This document shows, one piece after another, positions 1 through 52,639 of a stretch of 59,455 bases of DNA. A model generated the notes under the pieces. That model ran no database searches. It had not been told where the DNA came from and saw nothing but the letters and a program-made list of their open reading frames with translations. The position numbers and the translations under genes are program-made. How positions within the stretch are numbered: position 1 is the first letter of the stretch; the number at the start of each line of letters is the position of its first letter. The DNA is from a virus (lineage: Duplodnaviria > Caudoviricetes), in the IMG/VR virus record IMGVR_UViG_3300017911_002575, positions 1 to 59,455 of that record, one strand, 5' to 3'.

Positions 1-208
1 GTGTGAAATGGTTTTACAAATGGGTGGTAATGTTGCAGTTGTATTTCGCAACGAGTTGCCCGCAACTTGGAATGGTTATGAGGTTGTGAATGGTGACGAA
101 AATGATTTGCGTTTTCTTGACAAGAAAGGTGTGGTTGTTGGTCTTATTGAGAAAGGCATGGCAAAAAAAGATTTGACAGGATTTGTTCAAGAAGGTAGTA
201 TTGCATAA
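1..208 (+). CDS. C-terminal part of a GP88-like phage protein (5'-truncated by the window edge)
   Basis: NVAVVF..LP..WNG..VVNGDENDLRFLD..GVVVGL..KG.AKKD.TGFV resembles the C-terminus of phage GP88-family proteins (recognised from memory). Confidence 0.6.
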   Translation, partial: CEMVLQMGGNVAVVFRNELPATWNGYEVVNGDENDLRFLDKKGVVVGLIEKGMAKKDLTGFVQEGSIA

Positions 209-378
209 TGGACTATTACGAATCAGCAGAAGGAATTGAGATATCAAAAAAGCGAGCTTTATTGGAGCTAAAAAAACATGGAATTGAAAGTCAATTTGAT
301 ATTGACGATTTTTTCAAAGAGGTTGGCGACAAAGAGCGTTATGATGCTCAAGAGGTTCTCGATTGGTTAGGTTATTGA
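208..378 (+). CDS. small hypothetical phage protein (56 aa, MDYYESAEG...VLDWLGY)
   Basis: Translated by hand; its ATG overlaps the upstream stop (TAATG). Confidence 0.7.
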   Translation: MDYYESAEGIEISKKRALLELKKHGIESQFDIDDFFKEVGDKERYDAQEVLDWLGY

Positions 379-387
379 ATTAATTTC

Positions 388-435
388 TTGACCTATCCTG
401 CGGGGGGGCCCTCCGGTAGAATCGTGCAAAAACTT
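388..435 (+). repeat. dispersed GC-rich intergenic repeat, copy 1
   Basis: TTGACCTATCCTGCGGGGGGGCCCTCCGGTAGAATCGTGCAAAAACTT. Confidence 0.9.
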
Positions 436-450
436 AGTAGAATATTAGCC

Positions 451-478
451 TTGACTTTGATTCGGTTTCTGTCATAAT
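451..478 (+). promoter_or_regulatory. sigma70-type promoter upstream of the tRNA-like RNA
   Basis: TTGACT-N16-CATAAT with extended -10 TG; same layout as the promoters at 598-625 and 5205-5232. Confidence 0.75.
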
Positions 479-484
479 GATACT

Positions 485-587
485 TACCAACACGACCTAA
501 TCAAGCTGCAAATTGATGGAGGTGAAGAGAGGCATGATTGCAGTCAACGCTAAACTCTTGGGGGTTCGATTCCCTCCGTGTATGGTA
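485..587 (+). ncRNA. putative tRNA-like structured ncRNA (4-way junction, T-arm, kissing loops)
   Basis: Closing stem TACCA-ACACG (485-494) / CGTGT-A-TGGTA (577-587). Canonical T-arm GGGGG-TTCGATT-CCCTC (560-576). Two further hairpins whose loops (CTGCAA and TTGCAG) are complementary. Starts 6 nt after a -10 element. Confidence 0.6.
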
Positions 588-597
588 TGATTTTTAC

Positions 598-625
598 TTG
601 ACTTTCACACTCACTCTGTCATACT
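598..625 (+). promoter_or_regulatory. sigma70-type promoter, leaderless (ATG at 632)
   Basis: TTGACT-N16-CATACT, extended -10 TG, 6 nt to ATG. Confidence 0.75.
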
Positions 626-631
626 ATAACC

Positions 632-745
632 ATGATTAAGATTAGAAAAAAAATTCTCTTCACTAAGTCTCGACCACACAAGCTCAAGACAAAAGTGATT
701 CACAGAAAACTCAAACACAAGGAGGAATTAACTCATGTATATTAA
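632..745 (+). CDS. small basic peptide (37 aa, MIKIRKK...HRKLKHKEELTHVY)
   Basis: Translated by hand; ATG at the predicted +1 of the promoter. Confidence 0.55.
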   Translation: MIKIRKKILFTKSRPHKLKTKVIHRKLKHKEELTHVY

Positions 746-974
746 AGAAGATTATGACGATGGTGATATTCCAAGTTCACCAGAAATTGCAGATCATGTT
801 CTGAACATCATCGCTCAAGACATTATCAAACCTTTAATCAAAACAGGTTTGTTAGACGAGGATAAACAAAAAAGTTTGCTACTAATCAAAGATGCAGTTA
901 TAGCTTTATCTCAAAAAGCCTACGCATACGAAAAAATTTATCAAAGTAAAAATGAAAGTCACCTCCGCAACTAA
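735..974 (+). CDS. hypothetical protein
   Basis: ORF with AAGGAGG Shine-Dalgarno upstream. Confidence 0.7.
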   Translation: MYIKEDYDDGDIPSSPEIADHVLNIIAQDIIKPLIKTGLLDEDKQKSLLLIKDAVIALSQKAYAYEKIYQSKNESHLRN

Positions 975-1164
975 AAAGTATTTAATCACAAAAAGTAATG
1001 ATGGTTGTGTTGTTGCCTTTGAAGCAGAAAACAAGACACATCCTTCCGATGTATTCATCGGACAATCAACTATGCAAAAAAACATTGACAACAATGTATT
1101 TGTTCGTCATACTACATTAAGATACAAAAACAAACCATTATATATATATCATGAAGACCTTTGA
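952..1164 (+). CDS. hypothetical protein
   Basis: ORF overlapping both neighbours in an operon-like run. Confidence 0.6.
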   Translation: MKVTSATKKYLITKSNDGCVVAFEAENKTHPSDVFIGQSTMQKNIDNNVFVRHTTLRYKNKPLYIYHEDL

Positions 1165-1501
1165 TGATTTAACATTCACTCCTCACGCACACGCTCACGA
1201 CTTGGGCGTTCAAGCAAGTTTGACTCTTGACAATGGATACGCTTTCAGCGTTGTGGGCAACACCGATGGTGGTGACTTTTTCTATGGCAACCATCCGAAC
1301 ACTTACGAAGTTGCAGTATTCAATCAGCGTGGAGACTTTGTGCCACTCTCTGTCTCGGACGATGTGCTTGCTTACCAAGCTCCGCATCAAATCACTTCTC
1401 TCATGCGACAATTTCATCTTGATGGCGTATTGCACGAAAAATTGCTTGTAGATATGCGACACGACTTCAACGAAAAACGAGTTGCTAGTTACCAAGACTA
1501 A
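1151..1501 (+). CDS. conserved hypothetical phage protein
   Basis: LDNGYAFSVV...YEVAVF pattern resembles a recurrent small phage protein family. Confidence 0.7.
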   Translation: MKTFDDLTFTPHAHAHDLGVQASLTLDNGYAFSVVGNTDGGDFFYGNHPNTYEVAVFNQRGDFVPLSVSDDVLAYQAPHQITSLMRQFHLDGVLHEKLLVDMRHDFNEKRVASYQD

Positions 1502-1576
1502 ATACTTAAATAGCAAATAGAAATAGAACAAATAGAAATAGTAGAATAGTACAACTTTTACAATTGTATTATTTTA

Positions 1577-1625
1577 TTGACCTATCCTGTCAGGGGGCCC
1601 CCTCAAGAGAATTGGGCAACCTTTT
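1577..1625 (+). repeat. dispersed GC-rich repeat, copy 2
   Basis: TTGACCTATCCTGTCAGGGGGCCCCCTCAAGAGAATTGGGCAA. Confidence 0.9.
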
Positions 1626-1631
1626 AGGACT

Positions 1632-1817
1632 TTACTCCCATTGTGAGTGCCAACCAAAGTCAATGTCGGGCTGATCCTCAAATTCCAAAAGAGTCACTTG
1701 ATCTTCTAACTCACCAATTTCATTGCGTATTGCAACTCTTTGCGAGTCAGTCAAGATGCACTCTTTGAGTGCCTTGTGAAGTTCTGAGATTTCTTTTTGC
1801 ATTTCTGATTTAGTCAT
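1632..1817 (-). CDS. small coiled-coil early protein (MTKSEMQ...DFGWHSQWE)
   Basis: ATG 6 nt after TTGACT-N17-TATGTT promoter (1852-1824). Confidence 0.75.
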   Translation of the reverse strand: MTKSEMQKEISELHKALKECILTDSQRVAIRNEIGELEDQVTLLEFEDQPDIDFGWHSQWE

Positions 1818-1873
1818 ACAAAAAACATAGCAAGAAAGCGTATAAAAGTCAAGCATAACTTTCAACTATTTTA

Positions 1874-1910
1874 TTGACCTATCCTATCAGGGGGCCCCCT
1901 TGTCAAGGGG
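1874..1910 (+). repeat. dispersed GC-rich repeat, copy 3
   Basis: TTGACCTATCCTATCAGGGGGCCCCCT preceded by TATTTTA, as in copy 2. Confidence 0.9.
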
Positions 1911-1925
1911 AAAGTCAAACTTTTT

Positions 1926-2162
1926 TTAAAATTCCAATTGGTCGTGGTAGCCGTAGTCGAAGTCTTCGTAGGCATCATGCCAACGCTCTTCGTGGTTACG
2001 GTGAACCTCTTGCATTAAGGCTTGCTCTTCCAAGTAACGCTCTTCAGCAAAAGCCTGATTTGTGCGAGCGATTTCCCTGTTTATCTCTGCCATTTGGCGA
2101 GCTTGCTCATTTGCGAGAGCGACGTTATCATTGCGGTCGAAGTGCGAGTACTTGCTAATCAT
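1926..2162 (-). CDS. small coiled-coil early protein (...DFDYGYHDQLEF)
   Basis: ORF track; own promoter TTGCGT-N17-TATGTT (2199-2171). Confidence 0.75.
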   Translation of the reverse strand: MISKYSHFDRNDNVALANEQARQMAEINREIARTNQAFAEERYLEEQALMQEVHRNHEERWHDAYEDFDYGYHDQLEF

Positions 2163-2229
2163 ATATAAACAACATAAGGGATGTGGTAACGGAACGCAAG
2201 CTAATTCGCATTTATTTTTATTTTTTTTA

Positions 2230-2273
2230 CCTCCGGAGCGCGGGGGCCCCGCCGATAGAATTGTGCAAAAATT
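2230..2273 (+). repeat. dispersed GC-rich repeat, copy 4 (divergent left arm)
   Basis: GGGGGCCCCGCCGATAGAATTGTGCAAAAATT matches the right part of copy 1. Confidence 0.8.
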
Positions 2274-2411
2274 AAGGGGAAGTGGGCAAGCCCCGAATAC
2301 TCAGTGAATGCCCAACAACCCCTTGGAGGAAAAGTTAATTATTTAGGTAATTAAAAAACATTCGTGCAGAACTGGCTAGTAAACTAAGAACTAAAAAAGT
2401 TGTAAAATCCA

Positions 2412-2603
2412 TTAAGCAACAAGGCAAGGCTGACTTGCGACCAACTTCCTTTCTAACTCATGTATTTTTGAATCAAGTTCAATTTGCATTCCCTGTAAAC
2501 TTTTTGCTTGTTCGTGATCGCCTTCTCTAATCGCAACAAATTTTTGTTGTGTGATTTTTTGCAGACGATCTGCTAATGACTCTATTTTGCTTCTAATTTT
2601 CAT
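2412..2603 (-). CDS. small coiled-coil protein (MKIRSKIESL...)
   Basis: ATG 6 nt after TTGAAT-N17-TATAAT promoter (2638-2610). Confidence 0.7.
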   Translation of the reverse strand: MKIRSKIESLADRLQKITQQKFVAIREGDHEQAKSLQGMQIELDSKIHELERKLVASQPCLVA

Positions 2604-2640
2604 AGGTATATTATAACATTTTACGGCAAACAATTCAAGC

Positions 2641-2937
2641 TCAATCTTCAAAGATTGCTCGCATGGTTGGGCTTACTGCCTCCATGTCGTGAAGATTTTC
2701 GTCATTGTCGAAGTCATCGTCTTCATCAGCACGATCATCTTGACTTGCGAGTTGAGAAACTTCATCCTCAACATCTCTTTCGGTTGCTTCAAGCAAACCA
2801 TGCTCAACAACCAACTCTTCAGCGAGAAGGTCAGCTTTCAAGTCGTCAACAAAAGAAGAAAGAGCAGGAGAAAGCTCGATGGCGTTAGTATTGCTCGCCA
2901 TTTGGCGAATGATTTCTAATCTTTCAGATTCAGTCAT
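2641..2937 (-). CDS. highly acidic small protein
   Basis: About 30 D/E against about 6 K/R in 98 aa (hand count). Confidence 0.75.
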   Translation of the reverse strand: MTESERLEIIRQMASNTNAIELSPALSSFVDDLKADLLAEELVVEHGLLEATERDVEDEVSQLASQDDRADEDDDFDNDENLHDMEAVSPTMRAIFED

Positions 2938-2960
2938 AGTGTTTATTATGGTTATTTTTG

Positions 2961-3122
2961 TTATTGAGTCAAGTTTAATTTTAACTGATTTTGTTCTGCT
3001 TCAAGGATTTCGTCAAGCTCGATTTGTGCGTTAATCACAAGTTGCATAGCTTGAACATTACCTTCGTCAGCAAGTGGCGTGTGAATTCTAATGATTTCTT
3101 TGAGTTCTGCTTTTTTGTCCAT
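2961..3122 (-). CDS. small hypothetical protein (MDKKAELKEII...)
   Basis: ATG 6 nt after TTGCAA-N17-TATTCT promoter (3157-3129). Confidence 0.7.
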   Translation of the reverse strand: MDKKAELKEIIRIHTPLADEGNVQAMQLVINAQIELDEILEAEQNQLKLNLTQ

Positions 3123-3162
3123 AATGATAGAATAGGGAAATGGGTTGATCTTTGCAAGCTTT

Positions 3163-3330
3163 TTATGCAAAGAATGGATGTTTTTTTACTGAGGAAAGAG
3201 GAACTGCAACACGATCTTGCGAGCGATAAATTCTTGCCAAAACAAAAGTTTCAGCTCCATCTTTGTGGAAACCCTCGACTTGGAGGATTCTGCGTTTGTA
3301 ATCTACTACGACATCATTTTTCTTAATCAT
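3163..3330 (-). CDS. small hypothetical protein (55 aa, MIKKNDVVVDY...KHPFFA)
   Basis: Translated by hand; ATG 6 nt after TTGCTT-N17-TAATGT (3365-3337). Confidence 0.65.
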   Translation of the reverse strand: MIKKNDVVVDYKRRILQVEGFHKDGAETFVLARIYRSQDRVAVPLSSVKKHPFFA

Positions 3331-3385
3331 ACAATTACATTACCAAAAAAAATCAAAAAAAGCAAGAAAAAAGTTTCAAAACCGG

Positions 3386-3458
3386 CAACTATTTTATTGC
3401 ACTATTCTACTGCCGGGGGGCCCTCCGGGCCTAAACCCTTGATGATCAATTACTTACA
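3386..3458 (+). repeat. dispersed GC-rich repeat, copy 5
   Basis: CAACTATTTTATTG (as before copy 3) ...TGCCGGGGGGCCCTCCGG followed by TAAACCCTTGATGATCAATTACTTACA. Confidence 0.8.
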
Positions 3459-3605
3459 TGAGATGATCGGCAAATTCTTTTCGCGGGCTAGACGCTTAGC
3501 TACTGCCATAGCCTTAGCGTAAGACATTGCGTTGTCAATTAATTTACCGTTTAGTACAACATTGTACCATTGGGTAAAGTTTTCATTTCTGTGAACATTA
3601 ATCAT
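3450..3605 (-). CDS. small hypothetical protein (51 aa, MINVHRNENFTQWYNVV...)
   Basis: Translated by hand; start overlaps the end of the upstream gene. Confidence 0.6.
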   Translation of the reverse strand: MINVHRNENFTQWYNVVLNGKLIDNAMSYAKAMAVAKRLAREKNLPIISCK

Positions 3606-3837
3606 ATTTAATGGTCTCGCGAGTTGTGATTACATCGCTGAAACTCGCAGAGTCGCGAATGTCTTCCTCTTCTCGGAGGATAGTGTTAAGGTAAGGAGCG
3701 TTACCTGTACGCTTGTCGATACTCGCAATTCTCACACGAGGAGTTTCTTGATTGGGTCTTTCCCAAATCTTTACGCTATAGAATGTCGCCCTTTTGGTGA
3801 CATGGATTTTTTTTACAATTGGGTTAGTTAAGTACAT
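3598..3837 (-). CDS. hypothetical protein
   Basis: ORF track; TTGACT at 3873-3868 upstream. Confidence 0.7.
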   Translation of the reverse strand: MYLTNPIVKKIHVTKRATFYSVKIWERPNQETPRVRIASIDKRTGNAPYLNTILREEEDIRDSASFSDVITTRETIKYD

Positions 3838-3882
3838 AAGTTATATTATTAAGGATTAAAGGTTGAAAGTCAAACATTATTT

Positions 3883-4260
3883 TTACCAACCGCAAGGCAT
3901 AACCCCACGATCAAGAAACGCAACTGCTTCAGCAACCGAGCAACGCATGTCATCGCAGATGTCTGCCAGCTTTTGGTCACGAACACTATTGCGAGAAACA
4001 AAAGTTTTCTTTTGAAAGCGTGGATCTTTTTTGGTCATTGCCAACTCTTTAACTTCAGCGAACAAGTCCCAAGGTAACTTACCTTCTTTGCAAAGGTTGA
4101 AGACCGCTTGCTTGCGAGACACGCCTACGGAGGCAACTGACTCACATACGCTCTCTTCTGTTGAGAAGTACAAGTGAGCGGATACTTGGTTGTCATTAGT
4201 GGTGAAGAATATAATGTCGATAATTTTCATAGTTGTAATTGGGTTAATTGTTAAAGTCAT
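3883..4260 (-). CDS. hypothetical protein (start may be 4230)
   Basis: ORF track; TTGACT-N17-TAGATT promoter at 4308-4280. Confidence 0.7.
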   Translation of the reverse strand: MTLTINPITTMKIIDIIFFTTNDNQVSAHLYFSTEESVCESVASVGVSRKQAVFNLCKEGKLPWDLFAEVKELAMTKKDPRFQKKTFVSRNSVRDQKLADICDDMRCSVAEAVAFLDRGVMPCGW

Positions 4261-4411
4261 ATCTTAATCTTATATAAACAATCTAAACACAAAGTTAGCA
4301 AAAGTCAAATTTATTTTCAATTATTTTGCTTGCATAAAACACTATCAATCAAACACTTATATAAAACCGCGAAAAAAAGTTTAATTTATTTGCGATTATT
4401 TTTTGTTTTGT

Positions 4412-4474
4412 TGTAAGTGTATTAGTGTCAGTACTTTACGACACGACCGGGGCCCCCCCGGCAGGATAGGTCAA
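4412..4474 (-). repeat. dispersed GC-rich repeat, copy 6 (inverted)
   Basis: Reverse complement reads TTGACCTATCCTGCCGGGGGGGCCCCGG...CGTAAAGTACTGACACTAATACACTTACA. Confidence 0.9.
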
Positions 4475-4494
4475 CGCCGTAGTAGTATACTACA

Positions 4495-4794
4495 TCATCC
4501 GAAGGCTGGACCTTGATCCACTGCGAACCAGTCGGATGGGTCAATGATGTGCCCGTTTAGCATAGGTTCGAAGTTCTTCTGGTGAAAGCCTAATCCTGTT
4601 ATTCCGTTGACTCTTTCTCTTGTGGTTGGTGTGTTCCAACCTGCGAGGCTACCAAGTACAAGCCCGTCTTCGGTGCGTTGCACTATCTTGTTACCATGCA
4701 ACCAAACGGCGTTGCCGTCTGTCATTGTGTTGCCAACTGCCTTGGCTTCACGGCGTTCAAATGCGTCTTTAATTTGTTGAGTTACTTTTCTCAT
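4495..4794 (-). CDS. conserved hypothetical phage protein
   Basis: WLHGNKI...LAGWNTPTTRERVN motif resembles a recurrent phage family. Confidence 0.75.
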   Translation of the reverse strand: MRKVTQQIKDAFERREAKAVGNTMTDGNAVWLHGNKIVQRTEDGLVLGSLAGWNTPTTRERVNGITGLGFHQKNFEPMLNGHIIDPSDWFAVDQGPAFG

Positions 4795-5006
4795 TATAGA
4801 ATGCTGTTGTTTTTTTGTATTTGACGAAAGAATTTGTAAGCTTGCTGTACCGCATGAAGGGCTTCGAGTACGGACTCGCCTTGTGTGAAGGTTGCCATCT
4901 CAACTTCAGCAAGGAATTTTAAGTTGCCTTCTGCTTTGGCAAGTTGCTCGATCAAGTCGATGCTTGGGAATTTACTTTCTTGTTCTTGTGTTTCGTTCTT
5001 AATCAT
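4794..5006 (-). CDS. hypothetical protein
   Basis: ATG 6 nt after TTGACT-N17-TAGATT (5041-5013). Confidence 0.7.
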   Translation of the reverse strand: MIKNETQEQESKFPSIDLIEQLAKAEGNLKFLAEVEMATFTQGESVLEALHAVQQAYKFFRQIQKNNSIL

Positions 5007-5049
5007 ATACTTAATCTATAGAATTTTTTCGTAAAAGTCAAACTTTATT

Positions 5050-5163
5050 TTAGTTTTTTTTGCTTACATCTTCGAACAGATCAATGCTCTTTGAAGTTAA
5101 ATCTTTGTAAGCAACAAAGAAGACGAGGCTGAAGTTGGCGATGAATAGGATTTCTAGTAACAT
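5050..5163 (-). CDS. small membrane peptide (37 aa, MLLEILFIANFSLVFFVAY...)
   Basis: Translated by hand; hydrophobic N-terminus; promoter TTGACT-N16-CATACT at 5232-5205. Confidence 0.5.
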   Translation of the reverse strand: MLLEILFIANFSLVFFVAYKDLTSKSIDLFEDVSKKN

Positions 5164-5474
5164 GATTTTTTATGTGTTATTAATTGTTATTGTTTATAAT
5201 GTAGAGTATGACAGAGAAAAAAGAAAAGTCAACCCCTAAAAGAAAAAAAAGACCCTACCCATTAAATGAATTCATTTTAGAATCAAAACGCTGTAGACAA
5301 CCGGGGGGTGCCTTTTTTCAATATGAAATTGATTTTATAAATTTTAATACATATGTTCGGATCAAAAAAAATCGGCGGCTCTGTAGAAAATAGTAAAAAT
5401 TATAAGTAGAGTAAACAAAAAACCGCCAAAAAACATTTAAAAACAGTGTACATTAACATAATATATTTTATAAC

Positions 5475-6203
5475 ATGCCTCGACGCAAGAAAAAACCAGA
5501 GATCGTGAATGAGGACGAAATTGAAAAAATTCGTAAATCATTAACCAAAACAAACATCAAGCTTAAAAAAATTGCATTAACAGACAAGCAAAAACACTTA
5601 TTAAAAATTATCTTTGACAATGATAGTAAAATAATATTCATAAGTGGCCCTGCTGGAACCAGTAAAACATACGTAGCAATATACGGCGCTCTGCAGCTTT
5701 ACAACATGAACAACGAGCGTGGTATTACATATGTCCGCACGATCGCAGAGAGTGGCGAAAAAAGTCTCGGCGCGCTGCCTGGCGAAATGGCCGAAAAGAT
5801 CAATCCGTATATGATGCCAATGAACGAAAAATTGGATGAATTATTGATTCCTGGACAAGCCAGTATATTAAAAGATAAAGAAATAATAAAAGGCATGCCT
5901 ATCAATTATCTTCGTGGCGCAAGTTGGCGCGACGAAATAGTAATCGCAGACGAAAGTCAAAATTTTACATTCAAAGAACTGACCACCTTGATGACCCGCC
6001 TTGGCGAGGGCAGCAAATTGCTTATCTGCGGTGATCCCATGCAAAGCGACATCAATGGCAAAAGCGGATTCGCTGACATGTACTCACTTTTCAATGACGA
6101 AGAAAGTAAAGAAAAAGGAATACATACATTTCATTTTGGAGCGGAAGATATCAAAAGAAGCGAAATACTAAAATATGTAATACAAAAAATACAAAAAAAA
6201 TAG
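5475..6203 (+). CDS. phoH: PhoH-family ATPase
   Basis: GPAGTSKT Walker A, LGALPG, YLRG, IADESQN, TRLGEGSK..CGDPMQSD. Confidence 0.92.
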   Translation: MPRRKKKPEIVNEDEIEKIRKSLTKTNIKLKKIALTDKQKHLLKIIFDNDSKIIFISGPAGTSKTYVAIYGALQLYNMNNERGITYVRTIAESGEKSLGALPGEMAEKINPYMMPMNEKLDELLIPGQASILKDKEIIKGMPINYLRGASWRDEIVIADESQNFTFKELTTLMTRLGEGSKLLICGDPMQSDINGKSGFADMYSLFNDEESKEKGIHTFHFGAEDIKRSEILKYVIQKIQKK

Positions 6204-6217
6204 TGTAATACTATTGC

Positions 6218-9200
6218 ATGGCCGAAGTATCAAAATTACCTGGAGATGGTGAATCTGTAGGCGTCAATCAAATTCGCAATAAAGTCAATGAAATAATTGA
6301 CCGAGGAGTTGGAGGCGGAAGTGGTGCTTCTATTGATGTTGGAATCGCTGGAGATTATGGAAACAATTTGGCCAACCAGATAGAGGTTTCTCCCTCGCCT
6401 GGATCAATATCCAATGAGGGATTGCGAAACACTAGCACTACTTATATTCCAAATGGAGGCACTGAGAGGATAGCCGACTTTCCGATTCATCAAAATCGTA
6501 TAACCGATGAAACAGGAATCAATATGTTTGCTATTTTAGTGAATGGAAAATTATATACCTCTACAGGAAACTTGCAGCACGGAAGTGATGCTGTGTTTGT
6601 TGGCTCTGGAACAAATTCCTCTGTGCGTCCTGGCTTGGAAAATATGCGTGAATTTCATATGGGAGGATATTACAACAATAAACCTGATGTTCAAGTACTT
6701 GATTTTTATCTTGGTTTAAGTTTTTCTGCAGTTCTAATGAGTGATGGCGTTTTGTGGGGCTGGGGACCAAACAATCATGGTCAACTTGCTCAGGGCAATA
6801 CCACAACCTACTATCATCCAGTTGTAATTGATACAAATGTTATAAGAATGTGGGCTCCCAAAGGAACTCAGCAATATATGACTTCTTACAATAGACACGC
6901 TTCATTGTATTGGAAAACTTCCAAGGATTATTATTATCAAATACGATGCGCGGGATATAATGGTAACGGTGTGCTTGGAGACGGAACAACAACAAACACT
7001 GGCACTAGTTCGAAACCATATGTAATTACACAATGGAATCATTTGCATCAGTATACTGATTATCGATTAAAAAACGTATACAATTTTAGCGGTGCCGGAG
7101 GTTTCGTTTTTATTGTTTTGCAGCATAATCAAGATGCGCGCGTGCAAAATGTTATTGCGTGCGGATACAATGACAAAAGTAATTTGGGGATCGATTTGTA
7201 TGATTCGCACACGAGTTTCGGTCCTTCCAAAAACTCCCAAAATAGCGGTTTTCCGGTTATCATGCCATCCGCTACGGTGAACGTTAAGAAATGGTTATGG
7301 TGTCTAGATAGCCAGGGAAATCCAAGCTGGACTCCAACTTGGCGTTGTTTTCTTGATAGTTGTTTGATAGAAATCATGGGTTTTTTTGGGGGCTTTCATC
7401 ATGGATCTGGTACTGGCAATTTCAATCCATGGGCTATGTGTTGGAGTCGTGTTTGGACAGGTTATGGAAATACACAGGGCGACTTTTTAAGAGCGGCTGG
7501 CTCGAATGAATATAGTCAACTTGGAGCTTTAGAAAAAGGCTTCGGAACAACATCCGCAAAAAGCACCAACTATAAAACTTTTAAATATATTGCTCCAAAA
7601 ACCGGCGGTTATACATGGGATGAAGCTTTAGCAGACGTTGTAAATAATGGTATTGCATCCGCAAAGCTTGCAGCTCCATCAAGTCGATCAGATTGGAACC
7701 GTATGAGTGTTAATATTGCTGAGAATTTTTCTCTTCCAGGATCACAAGATTTGCATCATGGTTGGTTGGCATTAACTGATGAAGAAGGAGAAGGTTTTTG
7801 GAAAAATTATCACACCAACATACAAGTTGATAAAAGCATGATTCCTTGGTCCAGACCCCAAGCAGATGACTCGGGCTCCTCAAAATATTTCCAAGGTTAT
7901 GCAGAATATGTTTATTATGCTTTAGGACAAAATCTTCGAAAAGAAGCTTTTACTGAGTCTACATATCAAGGTTCCGGAGAAGCAGATGGAATTCGAGCTG
8001 ATAACTACTTTACTAATTCTACTCATCGTGTTGGCAGAGGAATGCATGATATGATATCTATTGGTAGAGGAGAAACAACTAGTAAAAATTATGTTTTTGT
8101 AGCAGACACTCATTGCACCAACACAACAATACCAACTTTTAAAACTAGAATATGGAGATCAGAGTCTACTACTTCAAGAGGTAGTTATGCAGATGTATCT
8201 ATAGAAAGTAATTTCAGTGTTAGCAATATTCATACGTTCTGTAATTCGCAAAACGGATATAAATTGCATTATGTGAATCCATATATTGGTAAATTTGTTC
8301 ATTTGGATGATATTGGAGATCTTGTTTATATTAGTTGGCACCACGATAACAATCAATTGGTATGCGCAAGAACTGCGGATCTAGGAAGTAATTGGACATA
8401 CAATTACTCTACCATAGAAGGAGCATGGGGTCAAAGAAGTGCAGATGCGAATATAAACGTCGCCGCACCTGGTGTGCATACAGATGGAGGCGTCACATCT
8501 GCTGTTTATTTGGGTCAAGGAGTTATTGTTGCCGCATTTGGAGGGGCGAACCCTTATTCTGCACGAGGATTAATGGAAACAAACCCCAACCAAGCTTTAT
8601 TGGTTAGAAGTTTTGATTATGGAAAAAATTGGCACATGATTGGAGACGCAGATATGCAGTATACATTTTCAAACTTAAACCCCAAAGCATATACGACAAG
8701 TCATTTTCATGTCGGAAGATATCACGATGTTCTCAGCAACAAATATCGTTTAATATGTTTTGCTGGTTCTGGTGGAACAACTGGACAAGGTTATTATCAA
8801 ACGCATGCATTTGGTTGGACAATTCCTACAGGTGCGTATGCTCTTGCATACAGCGATGATTTTGGAGACAATTGGAATTGGTGCACGACAAATGGTGATG
8901 TTGAGGTAAATTATAACTTTCTTGATAGTCAAGCATGGCCAGACAATAATTTCTTTCGCGGAGATTCTATACATTTTTGCGAACAACAATCAAAAGTATA
9001 TGCTGTTAACACTTCATTCAAGCAAGCCGAAGAGTGGAACGCTTACGGACAAACTAGGCCAAACTGGGGCGAGCGAGCCCAGGCTTGGACTTTTATTAGC
9101 AGTGACGGTGGAAAATCTTTTGTGGACACCATGAGTTCTGATCATGGCATTATTCAACAAAATGGTGTTTACAACAAGGGAGGTGGGGACTTGCATCGAA

Positions 9201-10618
9201 CAGGAGTTTCTGGAGAAGAAGCTCTTCTTGCAAAGTCTTACAGAAATATAATGAAATTAGAACCTTTTGGAACAGACGGAGTTTTAGTATTTTGGCAGAG
9301 AAATAGTGACCAGGAATATCAAGGTCCAGGGTATGGTACTGGACTTGACAATAGTTCGATCCCTGTTGTAAATTATAGAGATATAGTAACAACCTATGGA
9401 AGTGCTGCTCAACAGCCAGAACACAGAATCACGGCCATATATGATATCATGACCCCAGAAGTTGTAAGAAATGGTCCAAATGTTGCTGATTATTTTTTGA
9501 ACCCATATCATTATAGTTGGGCATCAAATAATACATATAAAAGATTATTTAATGAAGGATCATTTGTGCTTGGTGCTCAACTTGCAAATGGAGACATTAA
9601 TTTTGTGCAAGGTGGATATGGAAACTTGAACACAGGCTCGACTATAGTTGCTTATGCTAAAAAATTTGATCAAACGTTGATCGGTTTCACTCAAGGAGAA
9701 CATTTTGCTCATACAATGGCTGGATCTTTTGTAGGATATGATGAGTGGAGAGATCTAAGCAATAAATCTAGTAACAATCAATTTATATTTCAGGCAGGAG
9801 GAGCTTTATATCCCTTATTGAATGATATAGGAGGTCCATCAACCACAAGATCTTGGGGGGCATATATTGGAAACACAAGATATTTTGGTTATTGGATAGA
9901 AAAAGAAGTAAATATAGATGGTGCACATGGAACTAAATATCTTGCCCGAGATAGTGCAGACGGAAAACCTTGTGTTGATGTTTCAATTCCTGAAATTAAT
10001 AGATTTACAAGTCCAACTGTATCTGCTTCATATACAGATCTTTTTGATGATCCTGTAACTCAAATACGAGACATTCGAACTCATGCCAGCGGTGCTGGAG
10101 GAGTTATCGTTACTTTAAGCAATGGAAAAGTATGGTCAACTGGATACAATGGTTTGAGTCAGCGAGGTAACGGATATTATACAAACGGACTTGTTTTAAC
10201 GACAAATTTGGATTATCCAGTGATGATTCCTTATCCCAGCAAAACTACCTCTGTTGCTGGTTGGGATAAATGCATGTTGGCTATTGCACCTTATGGCACG
10301 CACGATCATTATACTAGTATACTCATGCGAGATCAAGATAATCAATTATGGGGCTGGGGATACAATGCTCATGGAGAACTCGGTGCAGCAAACGATACTC
10401 AACAATCTTTTCCGGTTAAGTCTCTATTACCTGCAAGTGTATTCCCTAGCGTTATGGGTCAAATGTCAACCACCAGTAATGGACCATCTAGTATTATTAT
10501 TTCAACAGAAGGAGATATGTACGCAGCAGGCTACAATGGTCACAATTCTATTGCAGAGGGAGAGGGATGCCCAGCTGAATACAATATATTCATACCAATC
10601 AGAAATCCTTTGCCATAA
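6218..10618 (+). CDS. large tail fibre/receptor-binding protein with RCC1 repeats, C-type lectin-like and Asp-box (BNR) regions
   Basis: RCC1 repeats (LWGWGPNNHGQL, LWGWGYNAHGELG), four Asp-boxes (S/T-x-D-x-G-x-x-W/F), CLECT-like motifs; followed by a fibre chaperone gene. Confidence 0.75.
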   Translation: MAEVSKLPGDGESVGVNQIRNKVNEIIDRGVGGGSGASIDVGIAGDYGNNLANQIEVSPSPGSISNEGLRNTSTTYIPNGGTERIADFPIHQNRITDETGINMFAILVNGKLYTSTGNLQHGSDAVFVGSGTNSSVRPGLENMREFHMGGYYNNKPDVQVLDFYLGLSFSAVLMSDGVLWGWGPNNHGQLAQGNTTTYYHPVVIDTNVIRMWAPKGTQQYMTSYNRHASLYWKTSKDYYYQIRCAGYNGNGVLGDGTTTNTGTSSKPYVITQWNHLHQYTDYRLKNVYNFSGAGGFVFIVLQHNQDARVQNVIACGYNDKSNLGIDLYDSHTSFGPSKNSQNSGFPVIMPSATVNVKKWLWCLDSQGNPSWTPTWRCFLDSCLIEIMGFFGGFHHGSGTGNFNPWAMCWSRVWTGYGNTQGDFLRAAGSNEYSQLGALEKGFGTTSAKSTNYKTFKYIAPKTGGYTWDEALADVVNNGIASAKLAAPSSRSDWNRMSVNIAENFSLPGSQDLHHGWLALTDEEGEGFWKNYHTNIQVDKSMIPWSRPQADDSGSSKYFQGYAEYVYYALGQNLRKEAFTESTYQGSGEADGIRADNYFTNSTHRVGRGMHDMISIGRGETTSKNYVFVADTHCTNTTIPTFKTRIWRSESTTSRGSYADVSIESNFSVSNIHTFCNSQNGYKLHYVNPYIGKFVHLDDIGDLVYISWHHDNNQLVCARTADLGSNWTYNYSTIEGAWGQRSADANINVAAPGVHTDGGVTSAVYLGQGVIVAAFGGANPYSARGLMETNPNQALLVRSFDYGKNWHMIGDADMQYTFSNLNPKAYTTSHFHVGRYHDVLSNKYRLICFAGSGGTTGQGYYQTHAFGWTIPTGAYALAYSDDFGDNWNWCTTNGDVEVNYNFLDSQAWPDNNFFRGDSIHFCEQQSKVYAVNTSFKQAEEWNAYGQTRPNWGERAQAWTFISSDGGKSFVDTMSSDHGIIQQNGVYNKGGGDLHRTGVSGEEALLAKSYRNIMKLEPFGTDGVLVFWQRNSDQEYQGPGYGTGLDNSSIPVVNYRDIVTTYGSAAQQPEHRITAIYDIMTPEVVRNGPNVADYFLNPYHYSWASNNTYKRLFNEGSFVLGAQLANGDINFVQGGYGNLNTGSTIVAYAKKFDQTLIGFTQGEHFAHTMAGSFVGYDEWRDLSNKSSNNQFIFQAGGALYPLLNDIGGPSTTRSWGAYIGNTRYFGYWIEKEVNIDGAHGTKYLARDSADGKPCVDVSIPEINRFTSPTVSASYTDLFDDPVTQIRDIRTHASGAGGVIVTLSNGKVWSTGYNGLSQRGNGYYTNGLVLTTNLDYPVMIPYPSKTTSVAGWDKCMLAIAPYGTHDHYTSILMRDQDNQLWGWGYNAHGELGAANDTQQSFPVKSLLPASVFPSVMGQMSTTSNGPSSIIISTEGDMYAAGYNGHNSIAEGEGCPAEYNIFIPIRNPLP

Positions 10619-17292: not shown

Positions 17293-17965
17293 AAAAAAAG
17301 TTTTATACGGAAAATATTTTGCACCACAAGAAACAGAAGATGCAGAGTCTAAGTTTTATGGTAAAAATACCCTGGGCTTTGGTTGGAGACCTGGAGATCC
17401 TGAGTTTGAACTAGTAATTGATTCATGCACAATCGATGGTGGAGGAGTGGCAGAAGCCTTGAAGCTATCTTTTTGTAAAAATGTTACCGTCAAGAACACT
17501 CAAGTGTTCGGAGGGTATGAAGATTGTGTTGATATAGTGCGAGGAAGTAATATCACCTTTGAGAATTGTACATTTTTCGCAGGAGAAAAAACAAAACAAC
17601 ATATTACTTGCAAGGGAGGTGCGAAAAATATATTATTTAAAAATTGTAAATTCGTTGGATCTTTTAGAAATTGGTGGGACGGAGCATGTATAGATTTAGG
17701 CAATTGGACAGATTATGATGATGTAGAGCGACCTATGGTTAGAAACGTTCATATCATCAATTGTTCTATGCAGGATGTATCGTGTCCAGTTTTATATCGA
17801 AGATTGTATTCTGAGACTCCCTATGTTTCATACTCAAAAGGTTTCAAATTTAATATACCAAGATTATTTACAAAAGCTTTTTGGTTTTTGCAGCGAAAAG
17901 GCTTGATTGGCGAACGAAGAAGGTTTGACAATGAACTGCTTAAAATTTACGATATAGAAAAATGA
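17282..17965 (+). CDS. right-handed parallel beta-helix protein
   Basis: Repeated NVTVKN / EDCVDI / NITFENCTF / NILFKNCKF rungs. Confidence 0.75.
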   Translation: MSSEKKVLYGKYFAPQETEDAESKFYGKNTLGFGWRPGDPEFELVIDSCTIDGGGVAEALKLSFCKNVTVKNTQVFGGYEDCVDIVRGSNITFENCTFFAGEKTKQHITCKGGAKNILFKNCKFVGSFRNWWDGACIDLGNWTDYDDVERPMVRNVHIINCSMQDVSCPVLYRRLYSETPYVSYSKGFKFNIPRLFTKAFWFLQRKGLIGERRRFDNELLKIYDIEK

Positions 17966-18879
17966 ATACTTGTAAAATATGCTCCAAAGAATTCGAAACA
18001 GAGAAAAAACTGCATATGCATTTGCGGTCACATAAAATTACTCTTGCAGAATACTATACAAAATATTATCCAAGAAAAAACTTATTAACTGGAGATCCAT
18101 TACCATTTAAAAATAAAGAACAATACTTTGACCGGGATTTTTCGAATCGAAATCAATTGTTAAAATGGTGCGCTCAAAATTCAGATGATACTGTGAAAGA
18201 GTATATTCTTGAATTACTCAAAAAAAGAGTTGCCAGAAAAGAATTATCTTACGGCCCATCTCATTTAGAATTAAAAACAAGCGATATGCCAACTGTAGAT
18301 ATTTATCAAAAACATTTTGGTTCATATTCTAAAGCTTGCGAGCTAGCAGGTGTCAAACCTTTATTCTCATCAAAATTACCAGAAGAATGGCAAAATAAAG
18401 TTCCCGAAGATGCAAAAATATTTATTGATACTCGAGAACAACAACCTCTGACGTTTAAAAATTCAGAATCATTAAAATTAGATTTCGGAGATTATGCTGT
18501 AGCAAAAAAATATTATGATTATACATATGTTGACCGCAAAAGCGAAGGAGACTTTAAGTCAACGCTGAGCAAAAATAATTTAGAACGATTCAGGGCTGAA
18601 TTGCAAAGAACGAAAGATTTTGATAGTTATTTATTTGTTGTTACTGAAACCGATATGAGTACCATGGAAAAAAGAAATAGGTGGTCTCCCCATACATCCA
18701 ATATGAAATATATTTATCACAACATGAGAGTTCTTGCTCATGAATTTGCTGGACATTGTCAATTTGTATTTACTGGCGGAAGAAAACAATCAGAATATAT
18801 TATTCCAAAAATTTTAACTTTGGGTAAAAAATTGTGGAACGTTGATCTGCAGTATTACATCAGCAATAAATTAATTTAA
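17962..18879 (+). CDS. C2H2 zinc finger + ERCC4/XPF-type nuclease
   Basis: CKICSKEF...HLRSH; IDTREQQP, GDY, DRKS. Confidence 0.8.
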   Translation: MNTCKICSKEFETEKKLHMHLRSHKITLAEYYTKYYPRKNLLTGDPLPFKNKEQYFDRDFSNRNQLLKWCAQNSDDTVKEYILELLKKRVARKELSYGPSHLELKTSDMPTVDIYQKHFGSYSKACELAGVKPLFSSKLPEEWQNKVPEDAKIFIDTREQQPLTFKNSESLKLDFGDYAVAKKYYDYTYVDRKSEGDFKSTLSKNNLERFRAELQRTKDFDSYLFVVTETDMSTMEKRNRWSPHTSNMKYIYHNMRVLAHEFAGHCQFVFTGGRKQSEYIIPKILTLGKKLWNVDLQYYISNKLI

Positions 18880-37279: not shown

Positions 37280-37311
37280 AAGCCGCCTCAGAAATGGGGC
37301 GGCTTTTTTGT
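37280..37311. terminator. terminator between convergent units
   Basis: AAGCCGCCTCA-GAAA-TGGGGCGGCTT + T-tract. Confidence 0.85.
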
Positions 37312-47882: not shown

Positions 47883-48289
47883 TTTAATTTTAATAAACTG
47901 TCTCTTGTCTCAGGGGTCATTGGGAGAGGAAGCGAGTTTTTACGAAGTTTAAAGAAGCCCCATTCTTCGTGCTCCACTGCATCAATAGCGTCACTACTGG
48001 GAAAAATTAAATCTTCGAGCTCCACGTAAAATAAAGCAAAAAAACCATCGTTGATAGTTTTAAAATCATTTAGAAAAAATATTTCTTTATGCAACTTAAT
48101 ACCTGTTTCTTCAAAAAATTCTCTCAGAGCGGCAGATTTTGGATCTTCTCCTTCATCAATTATTCCGCATGGAACTGACCAATGACCTGCTAGATTATGA
48201 CAATACTTGGATCTTCTGCCTAGTAAAACAAGATCGTTAAACTTTGCAGCTATGCCTGCAGCACAATATTTTTTAGTTGAGGAAGTCAT
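47879..48289 (-). CDS. NUDIX hydrolase
   Basis: GIIDEGEDPKSAALREFFEETG Nudix box. Confidence 0.9.
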   Translation of the reverse strand: MTSSTKKYCAAGIAAKFNDLVLLGRRSKYCHNLAGHWSVPCGIIDEGEDPKSAALREFFEETGIKLHKEIFFLNDFKTINDGFFALFYVELEDLIFPSSDAIDAVEHEEWGFFKLRKNSLPLPMTPETRDSLLKLK

Positions 48290-49349
48290 CTAGAACTTCC
48301 TTGTTTTGCCAATGTGGACAACCTTCATATTTCATTTTAACAATTTCATCTCCATCTTCAAGTTCAAGTTCATGTTTATTATCTAGGAAAGCTGTTTTTT
48401 TAACATTTCCTTCAGGATCTTTTAAGGCCCAATATTCTCTTGGTTTTCTGAAGGGACATATGAATGCTTTAATTGGTTCTCCGTTTTTATCTAAAACAGG
48501 CTCTCCTCTTGACATTTTATATCCATCTTTGCCGCATGCAAGAGGGCCTCCAAAAGTTCCGTCTCTTGGATATTCTTGTGTTGCTGCTAGATTGCTCTTG
48601 GCAGATTTTTCGTCAAAATTATCTAGATATTCCTGAAATTGAGTAAGTTGATATTCAAAGCCATCAAGTTCTTCTTTTGTAATTTTATCCATTTTCATTC
48701 TACCCTTGCCTGTATTTCCTAGCATGTCTGTTTCTAAATCGAAACGCAAAAAAAGAAATTCACTTTGAGGTTCTGTTTCTGGCATCAAATGTTTTACCGC
48801 TAGGCAATATATTAAATTCTGTAGATTGTCTGTTATTTCTTTTCCTTTGAATACAGATTTACTGCTTTTGAAATCTCGAATGATTACCGAGTTGTCTTTA
48901 TATACAAATAGTTTATCGATGTATCCGCGAATTGCATATTTAATTCCTTCTTCTGGTCGATCTATTTCAAGGTCAAAAAATCTTTCTGATTCTGCGGTTA
49001 CTGGTTTTTCATTTTCGTCTCCAAAAAAATCGCACCTCAAACCATTCACGATCATTTCATCAATAAGCTGTAAGTTCTCAGGATCATTTACAGATAATTC
49101 TTCGGCTTCTCTTTGAACTTGTGCAGCAACAACTGTAGTATTCCAGATGGTTCCGTCTTTAACAATTTTATTGAATTCTCTTTTGTGTTTATCTCCAAGA
49201 AGCTCAAATACATTATGACATATGGTTCCTCTACTTGAACCATCATTTCCTGCGTCAGGAAGTTTTAATTTATAATTGCACCAATAAGTCCAACTACATG
49301 TTTGCGCGGTTTTTATTCTGCTGGCAGACAGCTTTGTTAATTTACTCAT
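48273..49349 (-). CDS. PD-(D/E)XK exonuclease (RecB/Cas4-like)
   Basis: SASRI...C, GTICH, GYIDKL, DFKS, Q..IY, C-terminal Cys residues. Confidence 0.85.
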   Translation of the reverse strand: MSKLTKLSASRIKTAQTCSWTYWCNYKLKLPDAGNDGSSRGTICHNVFELLGDKHKREFNKIVKDGTIWNTTVVAAQVQREAEELSVNDPENLQLIDEMIVNGLRCDFFGDENEKPVTAESERFFDLEIDRPEEGIKYAIRGYIDKLFVYKDNSVIIRDFKSSKSVFKGKEITDNLQNLIYCLAVKHLMPETEPQSEFLFLRFDLETDMLGNTGKGRMKMDKITKEELDGFEYQLTQFQEYLDNFDEKSAKSNLAATQEYPRDGTFGGPLACGKDGYKMSRGEPVLDKNGEPIKAFICPFRKPREYWALKDPEGNVKKTAFLDNKHELELEDGDEIVKMKYEGCPHWQNKEVLDDFLN

Positions 49350-52228: not shown

Positions 52229-52639
52229 CTATAATTTAACACCAAAACTTTCGAAAAGTTTTTCGCTTAATTCATCTCCATCATATATTTCAACAAGCTG
52301 TATATCGTTGATTTCGCAAAATTGCAGCTTGTCTCTATCTCTTTTTAGTTGATTAAGATAATTGATTTTATTTTTGCCATGAAAGAATGGAACATATTTT
52401 GTGTGTTGTTTGCCTTGAACTTCGACTGCGATTTTTTTATTTGCGTTATAAAAATCTAATGAGAGCTTAGTTCCTGCCACAGGAAACTCTTCAAACACAA
52501 TATGTTTGCTCCAGTATTTTTTTAAGAACTGTTTGGCATTGTACTGTATTTTACTCCTGCTTCCCGAATCCCATTCTATCAAATAATTTTTTGCTTTTTT
52601 AACAGTTCGTATTGATCCTGTTAGCGTTTTAAAGCGCAT
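52229..52639 (-). CDS. Vsr/DUF559-like endonuclease
   Basis: EEFP, LDFY, AVEVQGKQH, RDRDK..FC. Confidence 0.75.
   Translation of the reverse strand: MRFKTLTGSIRTVKKAKNYLIEWDSGSRSKIQYNAKQFLKKYWSKHIVFEEFPVAGTKLSLDFYNANKKIAVEVQGKQHTKYVPFFHGKNKINYLNQLKRDRDKLQFCEINDIQLVEIYDGDELSEKLFESFGVKL

Follow-up and report, generated by a model that had tools for sequence, protein, structure and literature searches.

The question raised by the locus studied here is what a series of G-run/C-run palindromes, placed between the small genes of a viral genome, might do there. The sequence is a viral contig of the IMG/VR database with a length of 59,455 bases and an estimated completeness of approximately 45%; this whole stretch of DNA is referred to below as the window. 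Six copies of the palindrome were found at positions 388 to 4474, close to a PhoH-like gene (5475-6203). The answer considered probable is that palindrome and promoter form composite modules which border cassettes of orphan genes (ORFans), and that the array is a system like the promoter-early stem-loops (PeSLs) of T4-type phages, present outside of that phage group.

The hexamer GGGCCC occurs eight times in the window, compared to an expectation of 2.09 (standard deviation 1.45), and none of 100 shuffled sequences reached this number (shuffle maximum 5). Six of the eight occurrences (406, 1595, 1892, 2244, 3418 and 4450) mark the six palindromes, all of which are intergenic, and the remaining two (30749 and 42530) lack flanking motifs. 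A profile trained on 36 distinct copies from the window and its relatives matched just these six places in the window. These results verified an earlier note on this DNA, which had described six intergenic sites at 388-4474 and had seen none elsewhere. The left-hand motif TTGACCTATCCT, which this note had assigned to four copies, is present exactly at 388, 1577 and 1874 on the plus strand and at 4463-4474 on the minus strand, with zero matches for the reversed control pattern; at up to three mismatches, 45 matches were obtained versus 50.9 expected. Copy 5 has the related sequence TTGCACTATTCT. The two proposed versions of the right-hand side were also recovered: copies 1, 2 and 4 carry AGAATCGTGCAA, AGAATTGGGCAA and AGAATTGTGCAA, and TAAA-N16-ACTTACA is found in copy 5 (plus strand) and copy 6 (minus strand). 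The same is true for the described cassette contents, as copies 2-3 and copies 3-4 each enclose one promoter and one gene and the other intervals hold three to five small open reading frames (ORFs). An exact scan of IMG/VR for TTGACCTATCCT-N3-8-GGGGCCC identified no other contig, and a search of Rfam (E<=1) with positions 1-6300 returned only two chance-level matches to eukaryotic snRNA/snoRNA families.

The core had originally been described with separate left and right flanks. The motifs are present, but they are the two arms of one dyad: AGAATYGKGCAA is the inverted form of the left arm, which makes each site one imperfect dyad of approximately 43 base pairs (bp), and in a repeat finder the right halves of copies 1, 2 and 4 aligned with copy 6 in reverse. 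Two arms of 11 nucleotides (nt) surround the G-run/C-run core, which is G3-7/C3-7 in all six window copies, and in the copies measured by eye the distance from arm to arm hardly varies (43-45 bp). Owing to this dyad symmetry, copy 6, which had been called inverted, does have TTGACCTATCCT on the minus strand but is not clearly inverted, TTGACCTATCC being its promoter-distal arm. In the window and five relatives, the order of elements in the direction of the genes is often an A-run, the distal arm TTGMCCNATCC, the G/C core and the proximal arm GGATYGTGCAA, followed by TAAAAT, AGTTGAAAG, six bases and a -35 box (mostly TTGACT). After a spacer of 16-17 bases, often with TGn, the -10 box is reached and an ATG follows 6-8 nt on, often as ATGATTAAG. 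The AT-rich tract TAAAAT-AGTTGAAAG-N6 separates the proximal arm from the -35 box in most copies, and in approximately one third of the aligned copies no distal arm can be recognised. The sequence TTGACC-N23-TAGAAT inside the element was considered as a promoter and dismissed because of its spacer of 23-24 nt. A distal module, TAAR-N16-ACTTACA, recurs across genomes (window 3431-3458 and 4402-4430; relative L028 ~6421-6450 and 7540-7575) and often holds a small palindrome, TTGAY-N-RTCAA, that resembles two arm ends joined without a core.

Genes at 8-1501 are encoded on the plus strand and genes at 1632-5232 on the minus strand, mostly behind sigma70-like promoters. Copy 1 (388-429, plus strand) lies within the plus block and consists of the distal arm TTGACCTATCC, a G7C3 core and the proximal arm AGAATCGTGCAA; a sigma70-like promoter with a TG motif (TTGACT-16-CATAAT, 451-478, plus strand) is found 21 nt downstream and leads into a non-coding, tRNA-like stretch without an ORF. 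Copy 2 (1577-1619) is located where the plus block (ending at 1501) and the minus block (ending at 1632) converge, and no promoter follows it. Copy 3 (1874-1918, minus strand) is a dyad TTGAC...GTCAA with a G5C5 core. Its promoter (TTGACT-17-TATGTT, 1824-1852, minus strand) is followed after 6 nt by the ATG (1817) of a 61-amino-acid gene of family F1 (1632-1817), and promoter and gene constitute the cassette between copies 3 and 2. Copy 4 (2226-2268, minus strand) has a degenerate promoter-side arm (TTTACC on the plus strand) and the distal arm TTGCACAATTC on the minus strand; its promoter (TTGCGT-17-TATGTT, 2171-2199, minus strand) precedes by 8 nt the ATG (2162) of an orphan 78-amino-acid gene (1926-2162). 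Copy 5 (3397-3458, minus strand) combines the proximal arm TTGCACTATTCT on the plus strand and a G6C3 core with a distal TAAA-N16-ACTTACA that overlaps the end of the gene 3450-3605. The promoter TTGCTT-17-TAATGT (3337-3365, minus strand) leads, 6 nt on, to the ATG (3330) of a 55-amino-acid gene of family F4 (3163-3330) that begins with MIK. Copy 6 (4402-4474, minus strand) comprises the distal arm TTGACCTATCC on the minus strand, a G7C4 core, a degenerate proximal arm and TAAA-N16-ACTTACA; the nearest promoters are located approximately 100-140 nt further on (4348-4320 and 4308-4280). Six sigma70-like promoters of the minus block have no G/C core (2638-2610, 2972-2945, 3873-3845, 4308-4280, 5041-5013 and 5232-5205, all minus strand), and the hairpin part is therefore carried by only some of the transcription units.

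The association of element and promoter was quantified with a strict pattern, TTGnnn-N16/17-nAnnnT-N6-8-ATG opening an ORF of at least 30 amino acids, which was sought at +44 to +58 from each of 33 copies (window and relatives L009, L010, L021, L028 and L029). It was detected for 20 of these copies, compared to 76 of 2000 positions drawn at random from these regions. Copies 3, 4 and 5 of the window pass, and copy 1 has a promoter without an ORF. Most first genes after a promoter begin 6-8 nt past the -10 box, in the relatives as well as at the minus-strand starts 1817, 2603, 2937, 3330, 3837 and 5006 of the window. This spacing leaves no room for a Shine-Dalgarno sequence, and the mRNAs are thus predicted to be leaderless. 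Many of these genes begin with ATGATTAAG (Met-Ile-Lys), so that the first codons belong to the repeated module. Judged from their sequences, the composites would be active promoters with early timing, and the "early" and "host-takeover" roles of the cassette genes are likewise presumptive.

Relatives were collected via the neighbouring PhoH-like gene, which yielded 252 IMG/VR stretches, of which 80 were kept. Nine of these loci (L009-L011, L021, L028-L031 and L033) have between 4 and 10 G/C-core elements arrayed upstream of PhoH and the others have none there. In distant relatives (e.g. L036, L038 and L042) the proximal arm, the AT-rich tract, the promoter and the leaderless ATGATTAAG are kept without an adjoining G/C core. 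The promoter-proximal motif of a relative of 140 kb is found only at 3.2-7.4 kb, adjoining PhoH, and the 93%-complete relative G001 contains zero G/C-core elements and a single promoter-proximal motif, with two mismatches and far from PhoH. A longer promoter-proximal pattern retrieved the contigs already found plus two more, and megablast of positions 1-6000 against isolate phages gave no match. For 15 of 19 small proteins scanned from the region there was no PHROG hit. The core-less relatives contain a different repeat of approximately 200 bp in two to three copies per locus (L042 5678-5880 and 8486-8690; also L036, L038, L044, L050 and L054). On the gene strand it starts with a canonical terminator with T6 and the same two arms 4 nt apart, continues through a conserved spacer of ~135 nt with CAACGACTTAC, and leads into the proximal arm, the promoter and a leaderless ATG. 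The canonical sense-strand terminator and the closely spaced arms of L042 are thereby placed ~170 nt upstream of the proximal-arm promoter unit.

The gene content between the elements was compared after grouping ORFs of at least 35 amino acids from five regions into families (F) by blastp. Given in the direction of transcription and with E for an element, the order in the window is [F24 F11] E [u125 F12 F13] E [F4 F14 F3 F25] E [u78] E [F1] E, and that of L010 is [F12 F13] E [F29 F24 F11] E [F61 F20] E [F53 F14 F3] E [F31 F1] E. Two modules have therefore been swapped and others gained or lost. The pair L028 and L029 is approximately 87-92% identical where alignable and differs by whole cassettes; a single-gene F34 cassette is bounded by elements at two sites of L029 and at one site of L028. 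The array of these two genomes is 80-85% alignable and the flank 99%. These differences in cassette content, like the anatomy of the composite and its restriction to this region, are direct observations. Breakpoints were derived from 13 blastn high-scoring segment pairs (HSPs) of at least 150 nt, six collinear and seven off-diagonal. The elements with 60 nt on either side account for ~15-17% of the region; this zone takes in five of the ten internal ends of the collinear HSPs in both genomes, and one more in a single genome. Five of the seven off-diagonal HSPs end inside an element.

Parts of the region were present in 20 public sequencing runs, none of which is recorded as RNA, and contigs of four runs were compared with positions 1-6300; these are assembled contigs, of which only the best-supported joints were used, several with short sides. 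One contig from run X4, which belongs to a study other than that of the runs that best cover the region, joins 1484-1593 to 1890-2039, with sides of 110 and 150 nt and one mismatch in each. The joint connects copy 2 to copy 3 within their 14-nt common core, and the contig consequently is without the 296 bp that contain the F1 promoter and gene. This natural recombinant was observed directly, and with it a deleted cassette junction at the core, as the earlier note had envisaged, exists. The longest exact stretches common to copies 2 and 3 measure 19 and 14 nt, below the 31-letter index words. Further contigs are joined promoter to promoter, from 456 to 613 (without the tRNA-like stretch, as in L009) and from 2969 to 3155 (without the F14 gene). 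Contig breaks were also mapped inside the core of copy 5 (3420, continuing with a different arm), in the proximal arm of copy 1 (424) and at the junction of -10 box and ATG of F1 (1818/1819). The lengths of G/C runs vary by 1-2 bases between contigs at 408, 2241, 3414, 3420 and 4448, and 6 of the 12 one- or two-base indels listed for the 6.3-kb stretch sit in G or C runs, in five of the six cores. Two joints lead backwards (455 to 1 and 4327 to 1937); their sides are short and their reading is ambiguous.

Taken together, the repeats would act as follows. Each is a G-run/C-run palindrome capable of forming a stem-loop, with two similar arms, and is joined to a UP-like, AT-rich tract and to a promoter of sigma70 type, which would fire into the next, mostly leaderless small gene. 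The variable ORFan region would in this way be cut into self-expressed cassettes, at the borders of which 35-130 bp of near-identical sequence recurs. Such recurring border sequence could allow general phage recombination to delete, insert, swap or duplicate cassettes and to leave the expression of neighbours undisturbed. Recombination between the repeats is attributed to a RecA/UvsX-like recombinase, for which a candidate gene is present (52629-53735, minus strand); a PD-(D/E)XK exonuclease (48273-49349, minus strand) may be its partner. A protein with an ERCC4-like nuclease domain, a zinc finger and a homing-endonuclease-associated repeat is encoded at 17962-18879 (plus strand), directly upstream of the large terminase gene. 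All 40 window ORFs of at least 150 amino acids were scanned with Pfam or PHROGs, as were the larger array proteins of the relatives, and no integrase, serine recombinase or transposase was detected among these proteins, the window representing ~45% of the genome. The search for a recombinase that the earlier note had suggested thus ended with a RecA/UvsX-like enzyme and without a dedicated one in the window. The distribution of breakpoints over core, proximal arm, -35 box and -10/ATG junction fits homologous recombination better than site-specific acquisition, and together with the missing integrase and the presence of the RecA/UvsX-like protein and nucleases it makes general homologous recombination the most economical candidate mechanism. 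What stands of the proposed system for cassette shuffling and acquisition is that the repeats bound cassettes which differ between relatives, with some breakpoints in the repeats; the scattered position of the breakpoints and the lack of a dedicated recombinase in the window do not agree with it.

Several results weigh against a PeSL-like system. The junction evidence consists of assembled contigs and their best-supported joints only. Copy 2 is without a promoter and copy 6 without an adjacent one. The other 5 of 10 breakpoints between L028 and L029 are not at an element in both genomes, the ends beyond the zone being 126-673 nt away; of the expectation that gene content would vary between repeats with breakpoints at the repeats, the first part held and the second did so for half of the ends. 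Selection alone would also leave surviving breakpoints between genes. The remaining points concern the hairpin itself. Predicted hairpins of the window copies have energies of -11.5 to -18.6 kcal/mol, and yet on neither strand are the six copies more stably folded than their dinucleotide shuffles (z -1.28 to +0.77), and RNAalifold gives no consensus structure for the aligned copies. Outer-arm pairs are formed in 62.4% of cells compared to 64.6% in column shuffles, which means no covariation. The register of arm pairing is right, as sliding the 11 arm pairs reduces pairing to 29-49%. A T-rich 3' flank on the sense strand was found in 0/33 copies, which makes a sense terminator role as reported for one RB49 PeSL doubtful. 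The role of the palindrome as insulator, attenuator or 3'-end structure is the weakest step of the argument; it may insulate against antisense transcription, be processed as RNA or bind a protein.

Binding of a protein leads to the first alternative, in which the dyads TTGMCCNATCC ... GGATYGKGCAA form an operator array. A phage or host protein would bind them and regulate the adjacent early promoters (e.g. shut-off) or organise the DNA, and shuffling would be a by-product. The arms behave accordingly in several ways: both keep their consensus without compensatory change, two of the 11 pairing positions being unpaired in 25-26 of 33 copies; the proximal arm stands at a fixed 21 nt upstream of the -35 box, even in the distant core-less relatives; and the span from arm to arm is nearly constant. 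The third of the copies without a distal arm, the variation of G/C-run lengths between strains and the lack of an identified candidate DNA-binding protein do not fit. Arms 4 nt apart in the L042-type relatives are a misfit to a single dimer geometry, and the comparison with the ~21 nt found here favours a hairpin with an expandable top over a fixed dimer operator. An operator array as the whole explanation is considered unlikely; it is compatible with a PeSL-like system and not exclusive of it.

A second alternative is that the hairpins are pure RNA punctuation, either terminating convergent or antisense transcription or serving for RNase III-type processing or 3'-end stabilisation, with no role in recombination, so that the cassette differences would reflect generic recombination and selection. 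The hairpins are long (~20 bp) with conserved internal mismatches, and in 19 of 33 copies the A-run before the distal arm places a U-run behind the hairpin on the antisense strand; the terminator geometry therefore exists only for polymerases arriving from the opposite direction. Copy 2 lies exactly where the two gene blocks converge, and the phage does use canonical terminators elsewhere (37280-37305 in the window; also in relatives). A terminator scan of the window called none of the six copies. The strand that folds better, as assessed by G-U pairs, is the minus strand in 24 of 36 copies and is inconsistent with the direction of the genes (antisense better in 6 of 7 plus-block copies, sense better in 18 of 29 minus-block copies by row tally). 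This inconsistency and the folding no better than shuffles are difficult to reconcile with punctuation, and the recombinant inside the 14-nt core of copies 2 and 3 and the other contig breaks inside cores and arms are at odds with elements that take no part in recombination. We regard this explanation as distinctly improbable.

It is very doubtful, though of consequence, that a putative dedicated phage protein recognises a DNA or RNA hairpin folded from the conserved arms with their expandable G/C top, and that it directs cassette exchange or links such exchange to the control of early promoters. If true, this would constitute an integron-like, structure-guided cassette system in a lytic phage, with terminators facing incoming antisense polymerases. 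A fully integron-like site-specific system, in which a phage recombinase recognises the folded palindrome and moves cassettes at a fixed point, has imperfect palindromes at cassette borders, the element-bounded F34 cassette (twice in L029, once in L028) and two breaks at the core centre (1593/1890 and 3420) in its favour, but it is rendered highly improbable by the scans that found no integrase, serine recombinase or transposase in the 40 larger window ORFs (~45% of the genome) or in the arrays of relatives, by cassettes that have their own promoters and by breakpoints at several positions of the composite, half of them outside.

The proteins of the window allowed the phage to be placed with respect to the T4-type group. 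It has a Pol III alpha replicase and a DnaB/primase, and its sole T4-related match is a weak one to the Pfam T4-type terminase N-terminal domain (E 1.1e-07). The Pfam and PHROG scans of the window revealed no core structural gene of T4. Identities to isolates reach at most ~27% for the terminase, ~32% for Pol III alpha and ~29% for the RecA-like protein, and the protein in the portal position has no isolate match. Judging from these predicted proteins, the phage is not T4-like.

A number of further features were observed in and around the array. The non-coding stretch 480-590 (plus strand), downstream of the promoter at 451-478, contains a T-arm-like GGGGGTTCGATTCCCTCC and a possible acceptor-like pairing of ACACG with CGTGT. 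Neither ARAGORN nor Rfam matched it, and ARAGORN reported zero tRNAs across the window. Two similar promoters (450-476 and 597-623) flank this stretch, which behaves as a cassette of its own because L010 has it but L009 and the run X4 contig that joins 456 to 613 do not. Between the gene 2412-2603 and copy 4, a 135-nt non-coding gap (2276-2411) holds GC-rich inverted repeats, AAGGGG ... CCCCTT. The interval 5251-5460, between a divergent promoter and PhoH, is 75-80% conserved in relatives (L009 from 9778, L028 from 9843) and may be a regulatory or RNA element; it overlaps a doubtful ORF of 61 amino acids (5208-5393). A cassette protein of 99 amino acids (4495-4794, minus strand) matches Pfam Kyano_Gp96, a small cyanomyovirus protein (E 9e-08), which weakly suggests that genes are shared with cyanophages. 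The partial first ORF (8-208, plus strand) belongs to the GP88 family in relatives. On the other side of PhoH, a 1466-amino-acid protein with RCC1/beta-propeller repeats (6218-10618, plus strand) is followed by a tail-fibre-like protein, and this right flank, with its hypervariable tail-fibre gene, is highly variable between the window and the relatives.

In the PeSL-like reading, a predicted strong and portable promoter is combined with a G/C palindrome at the borders of ORFans, cassettes are reshuffled between relatives and a natural recombinant occurs in a metagenome. The same logic in an unrelated, uncultured clade of aquatic phages suggests a general or convergent way in which large lytic phages keep self-expressed orphan genes exchangeable. 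It also yields a compact set of predicted leaderless promoter modules and raises the puzzle of why the terminator geometry faces the antisense strand.

Comparison with known systems places the array as follows. In the early region of phage T7, RNase III processing sites are long imperfect intergenic hairpins between early genes that are read by host RNA polymerase; unlike these, most cassettes here have their own promoter and the palindromes fold no better than shuffles. The hairpin promoters of N4-type phages, which serve a virion RNA polymerase, were dropped as a model since the promoters that follow the elements are of sigma70 type and the window encodes no giant polymerase. The GC-rich hairpin beside an A or T run and the position of copy 2 at a convergence point are reminiscent of intrinsic terminators, from which the elements differ by a U-run that occurs on the coding strand in 0/33 and on the opposite strand in 19/33 copies. 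Integron attC sites are similar in being imperfect palindromes that border small mobile gene units. In contrast to integrons, no IntI-type integrase was found in the scanned window ORFs (40 of at least 150 amino acids, ~45% of the genome), the cassettes have their own promoters to which the element is fused, and crossovers do not occur at one fixed point.

The PeSLs come closest. They were described for the T4-type phages RB49/phi1, T4/PST and KVP40/nt-1, and are so far known only from T4-like myoviruses. Each combines a sigma70-like promoter with an AT-rich tract ahead of the -35 box and a stem-loop of the G(n)-loop-C(n) type; they sit between the ORFans of hyperplastic regions and recombine with each other, which causes indels and mini-circles (Arbiol et al. 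2010, PMC2839356; Comeau et al. 2014, PMC4122927). According to the first of these papers, one RB49 stem-loop terminated transcription in a reporter, small patches of homology are held to be enough for the phage recombination system, and a protein recognising GGGG...CCCC is the subject of speculation (PMC2839356). Among the papers returned by literature searches, as judged by titles and the beginnings of abstracts, those on PeSLs concern T4-like or jumbo phages and none reports a PeSL in a non-T4 phage. The array described here differs in its phage, which is not T4-type, in the position of the stem-loop upstream of the AT-rich tract (mostly between or over the -35 and -10 boxes in RB49), in the conserved 11-nt arms that give a dyad of ~43 bp, in predicted leaderless mRNAs without a Shine-Dalgarno sequence after the motif, and in a terminator geometry that faces the antisense strand. 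Nevertheless, the earlier statement that the motif resembles neither PeSLs nor attC sites was wrong with respect to PeSLs, as a G-run/C-run stem-loop with an AT tract and a sigma70-like promoter between ORFans is the very description of these elements. The composite consists of a sigma70-like promoter, an AT-rich tract before the -35 box and a G-run/C-run sequence capable of forming a stem-loop; its copies are clustered between the ORFans of a variable region in which indels and replacements among relatives lie at or near the repeats; and, as with PeSLs, a recombinant of two neighbouring copies, that of the X4 contig, has lost the gene between them.

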